From assembly GCA_046350815.1 (NCBI GenBank), contig JAXLZO010000001.1, positions 870,001 through 902,000 of the forward strand: a stretch of DNA of 32,000 nt. The letters run 5' to 3'. The notes under the pieces are model-generated. The model searched no databases and had not been told where the DNA came from. It saw nothing but the letters and a program-made list of their open reading frames with translations. The position numbers and the translations under genes are program-made. This stretch comes from Candidatus Saccharimonadota bacterium. GTDB lineage: Bacteria; Patescibacteriota; Gracilibacteria; BD1-5; UBA2023. Shown here piece after piece: positions 1 through 30,053 of this stretch. Position 1 is the first letter of the stretch; every line of letters starts with the position of its first letter.

Positions 1-1325
1 CAATTATACAATCTTCATCACCCATTGTTGCTCTCAAAAGTGCAACGGGATCAGCAACTATTATTGATGCAAAAGGTGGAGTTCGTGATATAAATCAATC
101 TGCAACACCTTTTCTTTCACAAGATGGTATTCTCAAGGTTTCCCAATGACTTGTGACGCTCAGTGGTACTGGTGTAAAAATTATTCTTGATCGATCATCT
201 GAAATTGACTACCAAAGAAATGATGACACAAAAATAAATCAGTTCGATCTCAAGAGTGGAAATGCATGGGTTGAGCTATCTACCATACGATCCGAAGTTT
301 TTGCACTCAAGAATTTTCAGATTATGAGTAGTGCTGACGATAGTGTGCTTATGCTCACTCAAAATGGTATATCGAGTACTGTTGCTGTACTGCAGTGAAA
401 AGTTTCTCTTTCTACAAAAGTTGCATCACTGACAATTTCAGCTGGAGATATGGCAACACTCTTCGCACAGGATAGTGAAAAGCCTGATTTGAGTGATCGG
501 ATACAACCTATTTCTGATGCGCTCAAATCGAGTAGCTTAGCTCTTTCTCAAGGGATAGATGACTTTATTCAAGCTATTGCCATGAGGTCATGAGTTTCAT
601 CAGGTACAACTCTTGCTTCTGACAATACTATTGTTTCTCTCGATAATAATTGAGCATCAATTCCATCTTCATCAGGTGCAGTAATTTTTTGAAAATATCT
701 TGAAATTACTTCTCCAAAAGATGGATCAACAGTGAACAAAAATACAATAGTTGTGACATGAAAAATATATTCAGATAGCATTACGAAAGTACTTATTAAT
801 GAAAAACAAGCTATTATTGGCAAGGAAGCAACCTTTTCCCTTGCAGATGTACCACTTGGATCACTTCAAAACACGATTCTCTATAAAGCTTTGAATGCTC
901 AAGGAAAAATTCTCGATAGTGGTTATATTACAGTAAAAAATCCAACTGGAATAGCACCGGTAACAACAACCACACAATCGAATAACTTTCTCCTTGCAAA
1001 TGAGAAGCTCTACTACATAACAGAGCCAAAAGCGAATCCATATCAAACAACAGAAAAACAGGTTACCATACGAGGTGTAGTACCAAAATGAAAGGTAAAA
1101 TCTATACAGGTGAATGGTTATACGCTCAAGCAATTTCTGCCATATTCAACGACTTGGAAATATACAGCATCGAAAGATGGTGGAAATATGGGAAGTGACC
1201 TCAACCTCTATCATATCGTCTACTATGGTATGAACGGTGAGAATCTTGGGTCTACTCTCTATTCTATAGTTCTTGCGGACAATGAAACCTCTCAAACACA
1301 AGTCGCCACTGGATCATCACGTTAA
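1..1325 (+). CDS. C-terminal part of a large secreted/surface protein (5' end outside window), beta-rich repeated modules
   Basis: Single open frame (codon phase from nt 3) ending at TAA 1323-1325 if TGA is sense. It has 7 in-frame TGA and no TAA/TAG. Track ORFs 153-398, 891-1091 and 1110-1325 are pieces of this frame. No family recognised. Confidence 0.6.
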
Positions 1326-16029: not shown

Positions 16030-16035
16030 TATAAC

Positions 16036-16112
16036 AAAGTAGATTCCCGATCAGGTCGGGAATGACAAATATTTATAAAGATATGTCATCCTCGCGTAGG
16101 CGGGGATCTACT
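16036..16112. repeat. two copies of the dispersed TGTCAT..hairpin..ATCTAC palindromic element
   Basis: aaagtagattcccgatcaggtcgggaatgaca at 16036-16067 is identical to 8045-8076. atgtcatcctcgcgtaggcggggatctac lies at 16083-16111. G/C-tract hairpins and the cagtccagcgag motif follow, up to about 16270. Confidence 0.8.
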
Positions 16113-16329
16113 TTTTTCTGTATTTGCTCGAGTTTTAAAGACAAAAATACACGTCCACCCCGGCTTTGCCACCCCTCAAGAGGGGCAGAGAGAAGCCTTC
16201 TTCCGAACTCCCCCGTTGAGTGACAATCTTCGGCAGTCCAGCGAGCGACATAGTCGTCGTGAGTCGGGGAAGATGGGTTTATGAGTAGGAGGAATTTACA
16301 CGAAGGACTATTTAATCGTACTAATTATT

Positions 16330-17330: not shown

Positions 17331-17413
17331 GGTATATACCACCTTTTGTTTGGTTGAAAACAACTTGATGAGTATAAAAATTAATTTGAGTTGTCAAATT
17401 AATTTTTAGGTAT

Positions 17414-18568
<1,155 letters not shown>

Positions 18569-18576
18569 AGATATTT

Positions 18577-18981
18577 TTACAATTGATCCATAGCAACATT
18601 GGAGAGTCGATCAGCCTCGCTATTGAGCTCACGACAAATATGGGTGAAATCAATCTGTCCACCCCATTCACGAATACTTTTTTGTATCTCTTCGGCTATC
18701 TTCTTGAGTTCAAGGTTTTTAATCTTGTATTCTCCATTGAGCTGACGAATCATGAGCTCACTGTCAGCAAATGCATGAATTCGAGTTGCTCATAGCTCTA
18801 TAGAGCGTTTTACTCAGAGAAACATGGCAGTGTATTCTGCTTGATTATTGGTAGCTATTCCGAGTGCTTTGTATCTTGCTTCAATTTTCTGATCATGAAC
18901 ATCGGTAATATAGACTCCACAGCCAGATTTTCCAGGGTTTCATCGCGAGCCACCATCTGTATAGAGCTTCACTATTTTCAT
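18577..18981 (-). CDS. rnhA: ribonuclease HI
   Basis: 134 aa. [54 protein letters not shown] contains the D-E-D-D catalytic pattern. 3 TGA on Gly positions. ATG at 18981 overlaps the pheS end by 10 nt. Confidence 0.9.
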
Positions 18982-20000
18982 GCGAATTGTCTGAGTGCTC
19001 GAATATCTGTGTGCATAAATATACGCATATCATCAATACCATATCGGATCATGGCGAGACGATTGAGTCCAAATCCAAATGCAAAACCTGAGTATTTTTC
19101 TGTATCAACACCACCATCTTTAAGTACATTTGGATGCATGAGTCCTGCACCCATAAATTCGATCCATCCGGATTTCTTACATACTTTGCATCCTGATCAT
19201 TCACAGAACGGGCATGAAAAATCTATCTCTACACCCGGCTCAACAAATGGAAAAAATCCAGGTCGCATACGAATAGATACTTCTTTTCCGAAGAGATCTT
19301 TGAGCATGGTTTCGATGGTATACTTGAGGTTGGCGAGAGATATTTTTTCTCCTACAACCATTCCCTCTACTTGGTAGAATGTATTGTCATGGGTTGCATC
19401 AATATCCTCATTGCGAAAAACACGATCAGGAACAATAACTTGAAATGGTGGTTTACGGGCTTTGAGAATGTTGTTTTGTTGGCTTGATGTTTGGGTAGAG
19501 AGTACATACTTTCCTCACTCGATCCAATACGTATCCTGCATATCGCGAGCCGGATGACTTGCGGGAACGTTCACTGAATCAAAATTCTCATATTCAGTAA
19601 CAATTTCTTTCGCTTGCCATATCTCAAATCCCATACGGGTAAATGTATCCATAACGTCGTTTATCACGAGCGTGAGTGGATGAAGTGCTCATCGTTGAAT
19701 ATCTTTTTTTTCCGTAAGATCTTCCCATTCTTTGTGAAGTTGTTCTTGCACTTTCTGATCTTCTATTTCTGCTTCTTTCTGAGTATACAATTCTTCAAGC
19801 TCGAGTCGGAGTGTATTTGCATCTTTTCCGAGTGTTGCTCGCTCTTTCGGTGTTGCGTCTTTGAGTGATTTGAGAATCGAGCTAAGTTCTCCGGTTTTTC
19901 CAAGGAGAGTATTTTTCCACTCGAGAAGATGATTGAGATCTTTGACTTGCTCAAGCTGAGAAAGAGCTGATGTTCGAATATTGAGAATAGAAGGATTCAT
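18972..20000 (-). CDS. pheS: phenylalanine--tRNA ligase alpha subunit
   Basis: 342 aa. N-terminal coiled coil (track ORF 19689-20000), then [30 protein letters not shown]...FHQ-like..EG, class II motif 3 [13 protein letters not shown]. In-frame TGAs. TAG at 18972-18974. Confidence 0.9.
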
Positions 20001-20002
20001 AG

Positions 20003-21136
20003 CTATATTTTAAGTGGCATGATGATATGTCGGAATGCTTGTGATTCTGGATTTGCCGCTGGAACACCATGAACAAGGATAGGGGAGAGCGGTGTCTCGA
20101 AATCAAGCGATACAAAATCTTCACGAATAACACCGAGAACTTCGAGAAGAAACACTACATTGAGTCCTACACGTTCTTCATTTCATTCAAGTGAGGCTTT
20201 TACTATGGTTCGACCGTTTCCTATTTGTGTTTCACCAGTGCTAATTTCGATCCCAGTCTCATGACTGAATGAAATACGTATGTTATCTTTATTCTCTCGA
20301 GCAATCAGTTGTATACGACGAAGTCCAGATATAAGCTCATTTCTGGATGCAACGACTTTAGTGGAGAATGATTTTGGGAAGAAATTCGTATAATCAGGAA
20401 ACTTGCCTTGTATGAGGCGCGAGGTGACCACCGTGTTTCCGATAGTAGCGCTCATAGATCCGTCACCAATAGCAAGAATCGTTTCTCCTTTATCATCTTT
20501 GAGTGATTTGAGCACTTCGTGAGCGCTACGATCTGGAATGATAGTATGCTTGCCACTTACATCGCCATCAATATCCATAGGAATTCTATATTCTGTGAGG
20601 CGATATGAGTCTGTTGAGGCAAAGGCAATAGAGGATTCATCGAATTTTACATAGACACCAGCAAGTGAGGGGCGTACATTTTCCTTGGCTGTTGAAAAAA
20701 GAGTTTTTTCGAGAGCATTCTTGAGTGCTGAATTTGCGATTGATACATGCATATTTCGCACAATATTTGTATCAGGCAAAGGGAATTTTCCCGCATCCAT
20801 TCCTTTAATTTTGGTTTCACTTGAAGCACTCTCAAGTGCTATCATTCATGTAGTGGAGTTGAGACTTACTTCGACTCTATCGTCACCCAGAAGTGATACA
20901 TAAGAGCTGAGTATTTTTGAACCGATGGTAAAATTTCCAGTTTCAAGAATTTCAACATTCTCCGAAATAGTTGTATCAATTGTAATGTCAAGGTTGGTTC
21001 CAACGAGTCGGACACTTTCGGGGCGGGCTTCGATATAGACATTCTCAAGTATAGGGGTCACTGGATTGACTCCCGTAACACGCGATACAGTATCGAGTGC
21101 TTCTTTGAGGCGAGCGGTAGAAAGTATAAATCTCAT
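20003..21136 (-). CDS. dnaN: DNA polymerase III beta sliding clamp
   Basis: 377 aa from ATG 21136. Joins track ORFs 20846-21199 and 20183-20845 and a C-terminal piece via 2 TGA. Three-domain clamp pattern (MRFILSTARLKEAL.., NPVTPILENVYIEA, ..GVYVKFD.., ..FSTKV.., ..MPLKI). TAG at 20003-20005, 2 nt before the pheS start. Confidence 0.9.
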
Positions 21137-21184
21137 ATTTTTATGATAGAAGCTATTCAAAAAGTGAAAAAAATCAAACCAAAT

Positions 21185-21212
21185 TTGCCTCTCATACACT
21201 TCTGGGTATAGT
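21185..21212 (+). promoter_or_regulatory. candidate sigma70 promoter for the Nudix gene
   Basis: TTGCCT (21185-21190), 16-nt spacer, TATAGT (21207-21212), about 24 nt upstream of ATG 21236. Confidence 0.45.
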
Positions 21213-21699: not shown

Positions 21700-22365
21700 A
21701 TGGAATGTTCATACCAGTCAGACATACTTACAATTGTGAGTGATAAAAAAACTATCACATATAATTTTAATTCATGACTCTCCATTGAAAATATGGAGGT
21801 GATTCTTCCGTGAGAATATGAAAAGTCATGATTTTTGTTGGTCTCCCGCAAAGTTATGGTGCCATTTGATCCGATTGCGGTAGCTCATCGAGAGATGACG
21901 AAGATGCAAAAGGAGCAAGATAAAATCCTTCAAGGTCTACAAGATACTGAAAAAAATAAAGAAGATCAAGATGATTATCCTTCAGAAGAAACACAAGATG
22001 AAGTTATTACGACTGCTTCAGATATGGACGATATTGCAAAGCATATGATTCATTCTATCAATATAGAATGATATAATATCCTCTTGGCAGGAGCTCCTAT
22101 TCCGGAGAGGCTCCTCAAAGATGAACATTTTGCTTCTTTCATCAAGAAAATTGACGCAGTCATTGCAACTCCATCGGAGGATCATGCAAAGCTCATTGCT
22201 CTCATTGATCCGCGTCTTACAATACTTCTTGGACAGGAAGGTATAACCAGTTTTGCAAAGATTGGCAAGACGGTAGAGGCTATACCAAAATGGAAATCAA
22301 AAGAATCTGATTTCTCCAGTGATGAAGGAGTCTGTATTGTACTTTCAGATGGGTCTTGAGAGTAA
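21700..22365 (+). CDS. hypothetical protein (about 221 aa)
   Basis: With TGA as sense, one frame joins an upstream segment with track ORFs 21835-22071 and 22084-22359, ending TGA-GAG-TAA at 22357-22365. Start is uncertain (ATG 21700, 21793 or 21856). Acidic central region. No family recognised. Confidence 0.45.
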
Positions 22366-22381
22366 AAGTCCAAGAATTTTG

Positions 22382-22409
22382 TTGACACAAACACGACAAT
22401 CTATACAAT
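22382..22409 (+). promoter_or_regulatory. near-consensus sigma70 promoter of the tRNA-Gly(UCA)/tRNA-Gly(GCC) pair
   Basis: TTGACA (22382-22387), 16-nt spacer, TACAAT (22404-22409), about 29 nt upstream of the first tRNA. Confidence 0.65.
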
Positions 22410-22437
22410 CCCCCGTGCTTAGATGACAGACGCAAAT

Positions 22438-22516
22438 GCGGGGGTAACATAAAAGAGTGAGTGTACTAAGGCTTCAACCCTTGGGTGTGCCAGTTCGAAC
22501 CTGGTCCCCCGCTCCA
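22438..22516 (+). tRNA. tRNA-Gly with anticodon UCA (decodes UGA); CCA encoded
   Basis: Hand-folded cloverleaf. Acceptor gcggggg/cccccgc, discriminator T, CCA. D-stem acat/gtgt. Anticodon stem (c)taagg/ccttg(g), loop cttcaac with anticodon tca at 22474-22476. T-arm gccag-ttcgaac-ctggt. G1:C72, C2:G71, G3:C70 and U73 are the bacterial GlyRS identity set and are shared with the neighbouring tRNA-Gly(GCC). Confidence 0.85.
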
Positions 22517-22557
22517 TTTGCTTCTCTAGGTATGATTTTTATGGCATTACAACTGTT

Positions 22558-22634
22558 GCGGGTATAGCTCAATTGGCTAGAGCGTCGCCTTGCCATGGCG
22601 AAGGTTGTGAGTTCGAACCTCATTACCCGCTCCA
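22558..22634 (+). tRNA. tRNA-Gly (anticodon GCC); CCA encoded
   Basis: gcgggta-ta-gctc-aattggcta-gagc-g-tcgcc-ttGCCat-ggcga-aggtt-gtgag-ttcgaac-ctcat-tacccgc-t-cca forms a canonical cloverleaf. Confidence 0.9.
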
Positions 22635-22648
22635 TTTTTTTTCTCTCA

Positions 22649-22987
22649 ATGGCTAATTCTCACGGTCTCTCTTCGCGTCTCGTCAAAAAACAAGCTGCTG
22701 CTCGTAAGCTTTCAAAATGAAAAAAGAAAGCAGCACAAGTCTATATTGGCAACGAAAATGCTCAAAGAAGATCACTTCAGAGTTACAAAAAGAGAACGAG
22801 GTATATGCAGAATAAAGAAGCGTTTCCAAGTAAGAAACTTCCCACTAAAAATATTGATTCTCTTATCGAACTAGGAATCATTGATGAGCGAGGATTTTTC
22901 AAAAAAGGAAAGAAAAAGAACTTTATTACAGGCGGAATGACAGATCGAAATGGTCTTGATTTCTATGGGCTCCCTCGAGCAAAATAG
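22649..22987 (+). CDS. hypothetical highly basic protein (112 aa)
   Basis: ATG 22649; joins with track ORF 22805-22987 through TGA 22718-22720. Lys/Arg-rich. TAG at 22985-22987. Sits between tRNA genes. Confidence 0.45.
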
Positions 22988-22996
22988 TTACTCTAT

Positions 22997-23074
22997 GCAG
23001 TCGTAGCTCAGTTGGATTAGAGCGCCTCCCTGCGAAGGAGGAGGTCATAGGTTCGAGCCCTATCGATTGCACCA
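22997..23074 (+). tRNA. tRNA-Arg (anticodon GCG); CCA encoded
   Basis: gcagtcg-ta-gctc-agttggatta-gagc-g-cctcc-ctGCGaa-ggagg-aggtc-atagg-ttcgagc-cctat-cgattgc-a-cca. Anticodon at 23032-23034, discriminator A73. Confidence 0.85.
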
Positions 23075-24501
23075 TTACATACCTTAAGAGCCTTACTCAA
23101 CTCGAAAACCTCGTTTTTCCTGATGCATAAGGCTTTTTTATTGTCCAAAATGAGTTCGACAGCAAGAATTTTGATTATATCCCTTTTTTTCTCAAAAGAA
23201 GCATTTTTATAATGTTGGACTATATTTATAAGAGGTTCGACAATTTCACTTGCTTCTGTGAGTAAGTCAATATTCACGTCTTGAATGAGCTTCAATGCCT
23301 CATCAATCTCTAAGAGTTCAGCGTGGTTTTCCTCGTTGGACTTTTTGAATTGTTCTGCGGATATTTCTCCATTTGCACGCATATCAAGATAGCCATCCAT
23401 CTTCTTATTGATTGCCTTTTTCTTATTCATGAGGGTCATTCTTTTTCTCTCATTATCTTTGATAATATTCTTCGTTTCTTGGATAGATCCATCGATAATA
23501 ATTTGAGCTATTTCTCTGCTAATCTCAAACTCATCAATACATTGATCGAAATATTCAATGATTTTCTTCTCACTTATTCGCACAGCACCAGCTCATCGCC
23601 CATGGTAATATACTACCTTACTCATTCTTCCAGTTGATTCCGATGCCGAAAGAATATTCCCGTGCATATCTTTAACGAGTCATTTAAATGGGAATTGTTC
23701 TCGTGGTGTTACTGCCTTGAAAACAGTATTTGCCCTATCCCAGAGATTTTTATCAACAATTGCAAAAGCTTTGTTCATAATTACTTCTCATCAGAAATGC
23801 ATGAGTCCATAATATGTCTTTGTGCGAAGTATTTGCTCCACGGATTTTCTCGTAAAATTGTTACTTTTCCATCCATGATCACTCTTGAGAATGTCTTTTG
23901 CTCTCACATGTTCAGCGATCGCATGAGTAGTCCATCACTTATTCACTCGTAGATCAAATATTTCTTGAATCTGTTCTGCTTCGACTGGATCTACTACCCA
24001 AGTATTATTTTCATCTTTTTTGTACCCACGAGGTCATCTGGTAACAAACTGTCCCTTCCTAAATTTTGTAAGCATGCCACGCTTAATATCCTCCGCCAAC
24101 TTCATAACGTAGTGATTCGCAAAAGAGAGGATCACAGCCATCATCATCGTGCTCTCTTGCTTTCCAAAGACTCCATCAGATACGGTATGCACCTTTTGGA
24201 TTTGTCCTCTCTGAACAATCGTCTGGAGCTTTGCCCCGTCGATCGGATTTCGAGAGAGACGATCTAATTTCCAAGCGACAATACCATCAGCCTCTCACTT
24301 TTTACAGCGATCAATCATCGCTTGAAACTTTGGGCGTGTTTCCTCAATCTTTGCAGAGAGGACTTCTTCAAATATCTCAATGACCTCAAATCATTCTCTC
24401 GTACAAAGAGACTCACACTCAAGTCTCTGAGACTCCAGAGAGAGTTGCTGCTTGTCCTCACGATCAGTGGACTTGCGTAGGTAGATAAAAACTCGAAACA
24501 T
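23017..24501 (-). CDS. large serine recombinase (integrase)
   Basis: 494 aa from ATG 24501. N-terminal resolvase catalytic domain MFRVFIYLRKSTDREDKQQLSLESQ...GIVAWKLDRLSRN, then a recombinase domain and C-terminal coiled coil (track ORF 23017-23583). About 8 in-frame TGA. The last 58 nt overlap tRNA-Arg antisense. Confidence 0.9.
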
Positions 24502-24580
24502 ACAAAACAATTTATATACTAAAAAGATAGCTCTCTTGTCCTAATAAGCAACAAGAAAAGGGGAGTCAACCCCCTCATTC

Positions 24581-28969: not shown

Positions 28970-30010
28970 CTATTTTTCTATTAAAAACAACCTTACTTCC
29001 TCCTCTCTCCTCTTCAGTAATCCCTTCAGCTGTCTCCCTCCAGCCCCATTCTTCCAATACTCAATCTTCGGTTGTCACTTCTTCACCTTTGCCGTGACTC
29101 GAAGGTAGCATCGCTCACAGTTGTACCGGAGTGATGTAAGAGCTGCAATCTTGTTGTCGGAACTTTTCGGATAGTTCTTACGGATTCTTGCGATGAGCTT
29201 GTCTACAATTTCTTGTAGTCTTCGCTCAGCTTCCTGTTTGGTTATTTTCTCGCCTGCATACGATCGAGTTCCGTATCCAATGGAGTATCCGAGGTGATCC
29301 CAGTAGGCTGTGAGCCTGAGTCCTTCGTATTTTCGGATCATTTCGAGCGCGAGTACTCTCGCAGATGATTCGTTCCCATGTATATTCTCTCAAGCATCCT
29401 TCCGTGGGCTTGAAGGAGCTTTTCATGTTTGTTTAGCCACTTGTAGTTTTCGATCTGATCAAGTGATATTTCACGAATCTTTTCCCACACTCGATTGAGT
29501 TGTAGGAGAATATATATGGTTACTACCAGATTGCACAGAAGGCTTATTGAGAATGTCATCATGAGCATATGCTGTCGTGATTAGTGATGGTCTGGGGGGT
29601 GCGGTGGAAACTGCCCCACCGCTAGCATTCTTTTGTGTGTTTGTACATTCGAATGAGACCAAGCGAATGCATCCATCGAGATCCTGAAGTCTTGAGTCTG
29701 CATTCTGAAGTTTGTCTTCATTCGCTTTCTTGTTCTTGAGGTATTCCTGGTAGAGAGCATCTTGTTTCTTTTGAGCTTCGTCCATTTCTTTCAGGATGGA
29801 TGCTTTGTTGTCCTCGAGGTACTTTTGTTCGACTTCGTAGTCGTGTATGAGTTTTTGTTGCATTGCTTTATACGTCTTTGCTTCATCAACCTTTTCAGAG
29901 AGATGAGAGACATAGAATCAGAGAGCAATCACCAAGATTGCGAAGAGGATCGCATCAAGATTGTTTCTTACTATACCCGAGAGCGTAGATGTGATTTTTG
30001 GAAAATTCAT
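28970..30010 (-). CDS. membrane-anchored GH24 (phage-type) lysozyme: N-terminal TM anchor, coiled coil, Ser/Thr/Pro-rich linker, lysozyme domain
   Basis: With TGA as sense, one frame runs from ATG 30010 (MNFPKITSTLSGIVRNNLDAILFAILVIAL-G-FYVSHL) through track ORFs 29471-29863 and 29075-29341 to TAG 28970-28972. The GH24 motifs ..ARVLALEMIRKYEGLRLTAYWDHLGYSIGYG.. and the post-TGA tail ..EYWKNGAGGRQLKGLLKRREEE lie on both sides of TGA codons. Start is uncertain (30010, 29863, or an internal GTG). Confidence 0.7.
29338..29568 (-). CDS. embedded out-of-frame ORF encoding a single-TM protein (holin-like candidate)
   Basis: MLMMTFSISLLCNLVVTIYILLQLNRVWEKIREI... has one N-terminal TM helix plus a charged tail. 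It lies wholly inside the linker-coding part of the lysozyme ORF. Its TGA (29338-29340) overlaps ATG 29341 as ATGA. Under table 25 it would run on to TAA 29242-29244. Confidence 0.3.
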   Translation of the reverse strand: MLMMTFSISLLCNLVVTIYILLQLNRVWEKIREISLDQIENYKWLNKHEKLLQAHGRMLERIYMGTNHLREYSRSK

Positions 30011-30027
30011 AGAGGAATTTTTGGAAT

Positions 30028-30053
30028 AAAAAAAGCCCTACGTGGTGTAGGGC
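30028..30053 (-). terminator. Rho-independent terminator
   Basis: The minus strand reads gcccta-caccacg-tagggc followed by ttttttt. Confidence 0.7.

Follow-up and report, generated by a model that had tools for sequence, protein, structure and literature searches.

We analysed a 32,000-nt stretch of DNA from a Gracilibacteria genome (positions 870,001-902,000 of the forward strand of contig JAXLZO010000001.1, assembly GCA_046350815.1; hereafter the window), in which the gene at 22438-22516 is very probably a glycine tRNA with the anticodon UCA, tRNA-Gly(UCA). This tRNA would implement genetic code 25 (UGA = Gly) and would be transcribed from its own promoter at the head of a compact transcription unit. 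An earlier reading of this DNA from its letters alone (the original prediction) had described the gene as a dedicated UGA-decoding tRNA and the device behind a recoding, and this stands, as the genes of the window read UGA as glycine and the tRNA carries the acceptor set of glycyl-tRNA synthetase (GlyRS). Both the device and its identity elements are already published, as is its distribution across lineages, and the gene described here is a member of that family. It counts as already known because it agrees with the published tRNA in every feature that can be checked in silico and because identical copies are found in public assemblies.

UGA is read as glycine

Translated with table 11, the open reading frames (ORFs) of the window are short and fragmented, whereas TAA and TAG as the sole stops give full-length genes that include ftsE, tgt, pheS, rnhA, dnaN, ppa and those of a PP2C phosphatase and a CDF transporter. 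In-frame UGA occurs 71 times in the 5318 codons of 15 genes (13 per 1000 codons), accounting for 18% of the Gly-plus-UGA codons, and the terminator is TAA or TAG in 15/15 genes checked. Four of the proteins, with each UGA marked X, were aligned to solved homologues, and the residues opposite the 16 UGA sites covered are Gly at nine, Ala at four, and Tyr, Arg and Val at one each, with neither Trp nor Cys at any of the 16. Among the sites aligned with Gly are the Walker-A Gly of FtsE (GxxGxGK), TDSGGFQ, GGLxVGE and LMGVG in Tgt, GNPG in RNase H and the Gly just before the conserved LHP of PheS. Given a background Gly frequency of ~7.5%, the binomial probability of nine Gly in 16 sites is ~5e-7 (hand calculation).

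A codon-exchange comparison, which is independent of distant homology, was made with the related contig ERZ15185866 (L001), whose DNA is 85-94% identical to the window and which spans ten of the genes checked for recoding. Opposite the TGA codons of the window this contig has TGA 24 times, GGA 14 times, and GGG, GCA, TCA and ATG once each, amounting to 15 TGA-GGR exchanges and three others; TGG, TGT/TGC or a stop was never found opposite a window TGA in this alignment. On the strength of both the homologue alignments and these exchanges, UGA behaves as a synonym of GGA.

The loss of UGA as a stop also leaves its mark on the window as a whole, with 159 stop-to-stop ORFs that reach 100 aa, counted over the six frames. 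Among the shadow ORFs antisense to real genes are some of 400-500 aa, such as 18909-20393 (+) opposite pheS/rnhA and 20003-21211 (+) opposite dnaN. Such long shadow ORFs arise because TAA and TAG are sparse once UGA is no longer a stop, and they are a trap for gene callers.

The tRNA(UCA) gene and its fold

ARAGORN calls three tRNA genes on the same strand of the window, with the anticodons tca, gcc and gcg (Table 1), and places the UCA anticodon at positions 37-39 of the first gene. The Rfam tRNA model RF00005, for which the gathering score is 29 bits, matches all three from end to end, at 44.6 bits for tRNA(UCA), 67.8 for tRNA-Gly(GCC) and 67.9 for tRNA-Arg(GCG); for tRNA(UCA) the E-value is 1.6e-06 across the whole window and model positions 1-71 are fully matched. 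The cloverleaf that the original prediction had folded by hand is therefore recovered by both an ARAGORN run and a covariance search, with the same span and the same anticodon register.

Table 1. Coordinates within the window of the predicted promoter, the tRNA genes and ORF112.
Feature	Position	Strand	Basis
Sigma-70-type promoter, TTGACA-16 nt-TACAAT	22382..22409	+	11/12 match; predicted
tRNA-Gly(UCA)	22438..22516	+	ARAGORN, Rfam, family covariation, cloverleaf energies
Inter-tRNA spacer, 41 nt	22517..22557	+	No promoter-like or terminator-like site
tRNA-Gly(GCC), canonical	22558..22634	+	ARAGORN, Rfam 67.8 bits
ORF112, 112 aa	22649..22987	+	Conserved ORF; one in-frame UGA; no Shine-Dalgarno
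tRNA-Arg(GCG)	22997..23074	+	ARAGORN, Rfam 67.9 bits; 3' end is a mobile-element boundary

Read directly from the sequence, the anticodon loop is CUUCAAC (7 nt, anticodon UCA), and the acceptor stem, 5'-GCGGGGG/CCCCCGC-3', supplies the pairs G1:C72, C2:G71 and G3:C70, followed by the discriminator U73 and an encoded CCA. The same three pairs, the same U73 and an encoded CCA are present in the canonical tRNA-Gly(GCC) that begins 41 nt downstream, so the shared GlyRS identity set and the spacing that had been proposed both hold. The tRNA(UCA) has a 7-bp acceptor stem, a 4-bp D stem and a 5-bp T stem in 76 nt plus CCA, and its D-loop, AAAAGAGUGA, lacks the GG doublet.

The best cloverleaf has an anticodon stem of 6 bp running from C29:G47 to G34:C42 (raw numbering), with a free energy of -26.1 kcal/mol, and is more stable than the other cloverleaf readings, with a 5-bp anticodon stem (-22.9 kcal/mol) or with the bulge placed by Infernal (-21.3 kcal/mol). 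The longer stem amounts to one extra nucleotide, and its two descriptions are equivalent. Counting the outer C:G as a Watson-Crick 26:44 pair leaves an extra A28 (raw numbering) behind the D stem and a variable loop of the normal 5 nt, whereas in the 6-bp-stem reading the variable loop has 4 nt. The non-canonical feature that had been put forward as either an extra nucleotide or a 6-bp stem is real, the 6-bp fold being the most stable and showing compensatory changes in the family. No other RNA family turned up when 22300-23150 was searched permissively with Rfam.

A conserved family in Gracilibacteria

The distribution of the gene was surveyed in one genome per bacterial or archaeal species by a pattern scan, in which the five outer acceptor pairs with U73, the loop core YUUCAR and GTTCRA were fixed and the rest was left free. 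The scan returned at least 119 stretches, and the numbers of loci (105), copies (106) and variants (32) given throughout are those among the matches listed and are lower bounds. A tRNA(UCA) of 79 nt is present in ~105 of the listed stretches, nearly all of them from metagenome-assembled genomes (MAGs) titled Gracilibacteria, Patescibacteria group or 'Peribacteria', and the family includes the complete genome HOT-871 and GN02-872. The remaining listed stretches are chance matches within ordinary tRNA-Gly genes of other phyla. No Absconditabacteria-titled record is among the matches listed, and viral contigs scanned with the same pattern gave 0 matches.

The 106 listed copies reduce to 32 sequences of equal length, which differ from the copy in the window at 0-13 positions; the copies in L001 and at locus L063 are identical to it. 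Scored against the cloverleaf whose anticodon stem has 6 bp, the 32 distinct sequences have 99.3% of their cells paired, compared with at most 58% in slid controls, and compensatory changes occur in 7 of the 22 pairs. These include changes of A:U to G:C and of A:U to U:A in the D stem and changes in three pairs of the T stem. In the anticodon stem A31:U45 is replaced by G:C in seven sequences and the outermost pair, C29:G47, by U:A in one (L092). The loop CUUCAAC is invariant in 32/32 variants, G6 and G7 are found in all listed copies although the survey pattern left positions 6 and 7 free, and the D-loop without GG is fixed across the listed family. Neither the 6-bp anticodon stem nor the D-loop without GG is thus a fault of the copy in the window; both are fixed traits of the family. 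That the gene might be a pseudogene is ruled out by its near-invariance, its compensatory changes and its conserved promoter (see below).

Two observations from the survey concern where UCA glycine tRNAs occur. Many of the MAGs with tRNA(UCA) are titled 'uncultured Candidatus Peribacteria bacterium' (L014, L026, L027, L030, L049, L051-L053 and others), and either these titles are an artefact of taxonomy mapping or UGA recoding reaches the Peribacteria as defined by NCBI. Separately, a Gemmatimonadales MAG (JBOHSB010000462.1; locus L050, 269-341 (-)) carries an otherwise canonical 73-nt tRNA-Gly with the anticodon loop CUUCAAA (UCA) in a Thr-Tyr-Gly-Thr cluster. In proteobacterial MAGs with the same cluster this loop is CUUCCAA (UCC), from which L050 differs by a single change of C36 to A; an assembly or variant artefact would account for the L050 gene, and the alternative is a Gly-inserting UGA suppressor in place of tRNA-Gly(UCC).

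Predicted promoter and probable transcription unit

The -10 element of the sigma-70-type promoter predicted upstream of tRNA(UCA) ends 28 nt before the 5' end of the gene. The promoter element is identical in L001, and the 336 nt from the promoter to past tRNA-Gly(GCC) are 98% identical between the two contigs, compared with 85% in the flanks. Across species, a motif of the form TTGnnn-15..19-TAnnnT, matching at least 10/12 positions and lying no more than 90 nt upstream of tRNA(UCA), was found in 69% of the 105 listed loci, whereas 1-2% of the reverse-complement, random-window and shuffled controls have one. The usual forms are TTGACT or TTGACA, a 16-nt spacer, and TACAAT, TATACT or TAAAAT. 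The near-consensus promoter of the original prediction, an 11/12 match, is credible because of its position and its conservation at orthologous loci and not because of its match score alone, and a dedicated promoter for tRNA(UCA) is, as a prediction, well supported. Apart from this promoter, the window has a single sigma-70-type match that reaches 11/12, TTGTCA-18-TATAAT at 17391-17420 (+), which lies across the 3' end of the minus-strand tgt.

No promoter-like site of at least 9/12 starts in the 41-nt spacer between the two glycine tRNAs and no terminator was found there, while the spacer elsewhere ranges from 5 to 64 nt (other species, listed loci). Because the spacer holds neither kind of site, and because it is as short as 5-25 nt in other species, we infer that tRNA(UCA) and tRNA-Gly(GCC) are co-transcribed. 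The ATG of ORF112, a short conserved ORF, follows the CCA of tRNA-Gly(GCC) by 14 nt and tRNA-Arg(GCG) follows the ORF112 stop by 9 nt, and it is likely from this arrangement that promoter, tRNA(UCA), tRNA-Gly(GCC), ORF112 and tRNA-Arg(GCG) form one operon. The unit had been drawn as 22382-22634; its promoter and two glycine tRNAs are retained, but its end is not, as the predicted unit would continue through ORF112 to tRNA-Arg(GCG).

Weighing the interpretation

Several observations weigh against tRNA(UCA) being a glycine tRNA that implements code 25 from its own promoter. C36, an anticodon identity element of GlyRS, is A36 in this tRNA, and its RF00005 score is well below that of its neighbours (44.6 vs ~68 bits). 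The minimum free energy (MFE) structure of the single sequence, folded without constraint, is not the cloverleaf (-26.2 kcal/mol), and in single-sequence folding the gene does no better than shuffled sequences (z = -1.32). The cloverleaf lies within 0.1 kcal/mol of the MFE, and the fold was judged by covariance model and covariation, single-sequence folding being rejected as a test. The invariance of acceptor positions 1-5 and 68-73 in the family was partly imposed by the survey pattern. Promoter matches of at least 11/12 number two in the window, where 1.5 are expected from shuffles. The gene prfB, which encodes release factor 2 (RF2), is absent from the 32 kb of the window, and this result holds for the window alone.

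In the mechanism that we favour, the GlyRS identity set on the acceptor and discriminator would lead to charging with glycine despite A36, and the UCA anticodon would pair with UGA as an ordinary sense codon that makes up ~18% of Gly codons. The tRNA would probably be the first gene of its unit, ahead of tRNA-Gly(GCC), ORF112 and tRNA-Arg(GCG). Processing of the transcript by RNase P and 3' nucleases would follow, as the spacings (41, 14 and 9 nt) and the lack of internal promoters and terminators suggest.

The origin of the gene is a separate matter. The original prediction took tRNA(UCA) and tRNA-Gly(GCC) to be the product of a local tandem duplication followed by a shift of anticodon, and this part of it fares poorly; we consider such an origin unlikely. 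It is true that the two genes are neighbours on one strand and have the acceptor identity set in common, that a canonical tRNA-Gly needs no more than a change of C36 to A to acquire UCA, as in the Gemmatimonadales MAG, and that tRNA-Gly(GCC) is nominally the closest isotype in global identity among the Gracilibacteria tRNAs sampled (0.65, with Met next to it at 0.63). However, the identity between tRNA(UCA) and tRNA-Gly(GCC) within a genome is 58-66% (65% for the pair in the window), near the 51-63% found for unrelated isotypes such as Met, Phe and Pro. The D arm, the anticodon arm and the length all differ, and what similarity has been shown sits in the acceptor stem. The tRNA(UCA) of other species average 93% identity to the copy in the window, which makes the family older than the species sampled. 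The tandem arrangement is also found in only about one fifth of the listed loci (~20/105), and L063, whose tRNA(UCA) is identical to that of the window, lacks tRNA-Gly(GCC) downstream; tRNA-Arg(GCG) follows tRNA(UCA) in ~30/105. A recent local duplication is thus not supported by these comparisons, whereas an ancient one is possible.

With regard to the amino acid inserted, the gene could be a tRNA-Trp(UCA), as in the code 4 of Mycoplasma/Spiroplasma and insect endosymbionts, where a dedicated UCA tRNA likewise makes UGA a sense codon, in association with the loss of RF2 (PMC4695839). Entries from the lineage in public databases have indeed been translated with W at UGA. In the ORF112 homologues P0001, P0075, P0092, P0096, P0108 and P0121, however, these W residues stand in columns of conserved G, and they are best read as code-4 mistranslations, table 4 having been used in place of table 25. 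Bacterial tRNA-Trp has G73, whereas the tRNA of the window has U73 and the acceptor pairs of a glycine tRNA. Moreover, Trp is opposite none of the 16 aligned UGA sites, and TGA-TGG exchanges with L001 number 0 against the 15 TGA-GGR exchanges, all of which makes UGA = Trp a very improbable reading.

Charging by cysteinyl-tRNA synthetase, wholly or in part, would make UGA Cys or ambiguous. Here the tRNA itself offers some grounds, given that U73, C35 and A36 are identity elements shared with tRNA-Cys(GCA), and a Cys isotype had been named in the original prediction as a possible refutation. Position 34 is U and not G, however, and UGA occupies invariant structural glycines such as that of the Walker-A GK[ST] motif. 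As Cys is absent from the 16 aligned sites and TGA-TGT/TGC exchanges with L001 are lacking, this too is hardly to be expected.

The weakest candidate, a selenocysteine tRNA, shares the UCA anticodon and a 6-bp anticodon stem with our gene and is the label that ARAGORN assigned ('SeC'), though owing to the anticodon alone, and it can be dismissed almost completely, since bacterial tRNA-Sec has an 8+5 helix, a 6-bp D stem and a long variable arm, where tRNA(UCA) has 7-bp acceptor, 5-bp T and 4-bp D stems and a 4-5-nt variable loop, since Rfam keeps the generic tRNA model over tRNA-Sec within the clan, and since UGA at 13 per 1000 codons, genome-wide and in all kinds of genes, is far too frequent for the rare UGA that depends on a selenocysteine insertion sequence (SECIS). 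The reading of the gene as tRNA-Gly(UCA) is the one retained in what follows.

Relation to published tRNAs

The tRNA-Gly(UCA) of Absconditabacteria (SR1) and Gracilibacteria (GN02/BD1-5), which use code 25, was described by Campbell et al. (2013, PNAS) and Rinke et al. (2013, Nature), here taken from the summaries in PMC4695839, PMC3812714 and PMC8629427. It resembles the gene of the window in its UCA anticodon, its acceptor set, U73, its divergent D and anticodon arms and the use of UGA at glycine positions. In the account of Campbell et al. (2013) given in PMC4695839, SR1 possesses an extra Gly-tRNA(UCA) that departs from the canonical tRNA-Gly in its D and anticodon arms while keeping the major GlyRS elements, and RF2 has been lost. 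The same work is credited, in PMC4695839 and PMC3812714, with reporting glycylation of the SR1 tRNA(UCA) biochemically. The tRNA(UCA) genes are nearly identical across SR1 genomes (PMC3812714) and there is proteomic evidence for UGA = Gly in BD1-5 (PMC4032931). In the Methods of Shulgina and Eddy (PMC8629427), tRNA(UCA) is classed as a Gly acceptor by G1:C72, C2:G71, G3:C70 and U73. The comparison with the published SR1/Gracilibacteria tRNA that had been proposed, made by way of these secondary descriptions of the SR1 tRNA, reveals no essential difference from the window gene, which has orthologues in HOT-871 and GN02-872.

In the literature covered, which did not extend to Campbell et al. (2013) itself, we found no statement on the strict 79-nt length, the 6-bp stem with compensatory change, the near-universal dedicated promoter or the linkage to ORF112. 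Stem length has been linked to UGA reassignment in another setting, as tRNA-Trp(CCA) with a 4-bp anticodon stem reads UGA in Blastocrithidia-like cases and in bacterial cases (PMC13092985), and the class (JAEDAM01) is treated in PMC13092985 in the context of anticodon-stem length. However, in those tRNAs the stem is shortened to 4 bp, whereas the stem of the window tRNA is lengthened to 6 bp and its anticodon is cognate to UGA. The reading of UGG by wobble at U34 is harmless for the tRNA-Trp of code 4 but would be missense for tRNA-Gly(UCA), a problem that PMC8629427 notes as an unresolved risk.

ORF112

The product of ORF112 is very basic, with 19 K, 9 R and a pI (isoelectric point) of 10.6 (MANSHGLSSRLVKKQAAARKL...GLPRAK). 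A tblastn search under code 25 found ORF112 in 68 loci that had been fetched for their tRNA(UCA) only, at 60-81% identity (e.g. L012, 2086-2418; L063, 2498-2830). In 54 loci it lies on the strand of tRNA(UCA) and starts no more than 300 nt downstream of that gene; of the loci that lack ORF112, 30 have 600 nt or more of sequence on the downstream side and eight have less. At 20 loci a tRNA, mostly tRNA(UCA), ends 10-34 nt ahead of the ATG of ORF112, and the leader is A/T-rich and lacks a Shine-Dalgarno sequence.

The family has 407 database homologues of ~110-112 aa, all annotated 'hypothetical', the nearest with a name being that of 'Candidatus Altimarinota' HHAS10. An exhaustive HMMER profile search of 1.84 billion representatives returned 16 proteins, all of them members of the ORF112 family or fragments. 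ORF112 has no Pfam match, its best NCBIfam hit is meaningless (E = 0.24), and a profile search of PDB gave nothing to E 10. An AlphaFold model of the family, with P0001 as the first row, consists of long helices and an extended tail (predicted local distance difference test, pLDDT, 85; predicted template modelling score, pTM, 0.49), and Foldseek found nothing better than E = 4 for it in PDB. We would guess at a ribosome- or RNA-associated role from the composition and conservation of the protein and from neighbours that belong to translation.

A divergent clade (L126-L130), whose tRNA(UCA) has the D arm GTAGCTTAAATGAG, carries its ORF112 homologue, P0121, away from tRNA(UCA). In four of the five places examined this ORF starts 11 nt after gatB, a translation-related gene (e.g. 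L126, 1562-3342). The linkage of ORF112 to the tRNA is common and not universal, because in this clade ORF112 stands next to gatB.

A mobile element at tRNA-Arg and other features

The synteny of the window with L001 ends at 23074-23076, exactly at the 3' end of tRNA-Arg(GCG). Beyond it the window has a large serine recombinase at 23017-24540 (-), with Resolvase and Recombinase domains, whose last ~18 codons run antisense through tRNA-Arg. Downstream of the recombinase, to ~31500, follow SSB, an IS1595-type transposase, a phage-type lysozyme and an IstB/DnaC-like ATPase, while the corresponding place in L001 holds a tyrosine integrase. With a recombinase or an integrase at this place in both contigs, the 3' end of tRNA-Arg is an integration hot spot. 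A second copy of this 3' end, the attachment (att) site of the element, was looked for and is missing from the window, and the far end of the element must for this reason lie beyond 32000 or be degenerate. The genes of the element contain in-frame UGA, eight in the recombinase and six in the lysozyme (28970-30037), and stop at TAA or TAG; sense UGA together with these stops indicates an element adapted to code 25.

Elsewhere in the window, a 17-nt inverted repeat with its arms 51 nt apart, followed by a T-run, lies at 16033-16117 (+), just downstream of the pyrophosphatase gene and in an intergenic gap of several hundred nucleotides ahead of a CYTH gene. It has no Rfam match and is probably a terminator or a structured element.

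Implications

Recognising tRNA(UCA) tells annotators to translate the contig described here with UGA as Gly. The wrong code has visible costs, as table 11 fragments the genes and table 4 puts Trp in place of Gly, as has happened in public entries. The invariant 6-bp stem, the dedicated promoter in ~70% of listed loci and the linkage to ORF112 are possible seeds for a small follow-up, and otherwise the locus holds no new biology; of these, only the linkage between ORF112 and tRNA(UCA) is a lead that is new.

It is conceivable, if rather doubtful, that the 6-bp anticodon stem and the D-loop without G18-G19 are a fidelity device by which UGA is read and UGG is not, and that ORF112 is a lineage-specific ribosome or tRNA factor tied to the recoding. 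What effect a longer anticodon stem has on wobble is speculation. If the idea were true, a stiffer anticodon arm or an altered elbow would allow the organism to avoid Gly-for-Trp missense through U34, and the device would mirror the tRNA-Trp with a 4-bp stem, which gains the reading of UGA.

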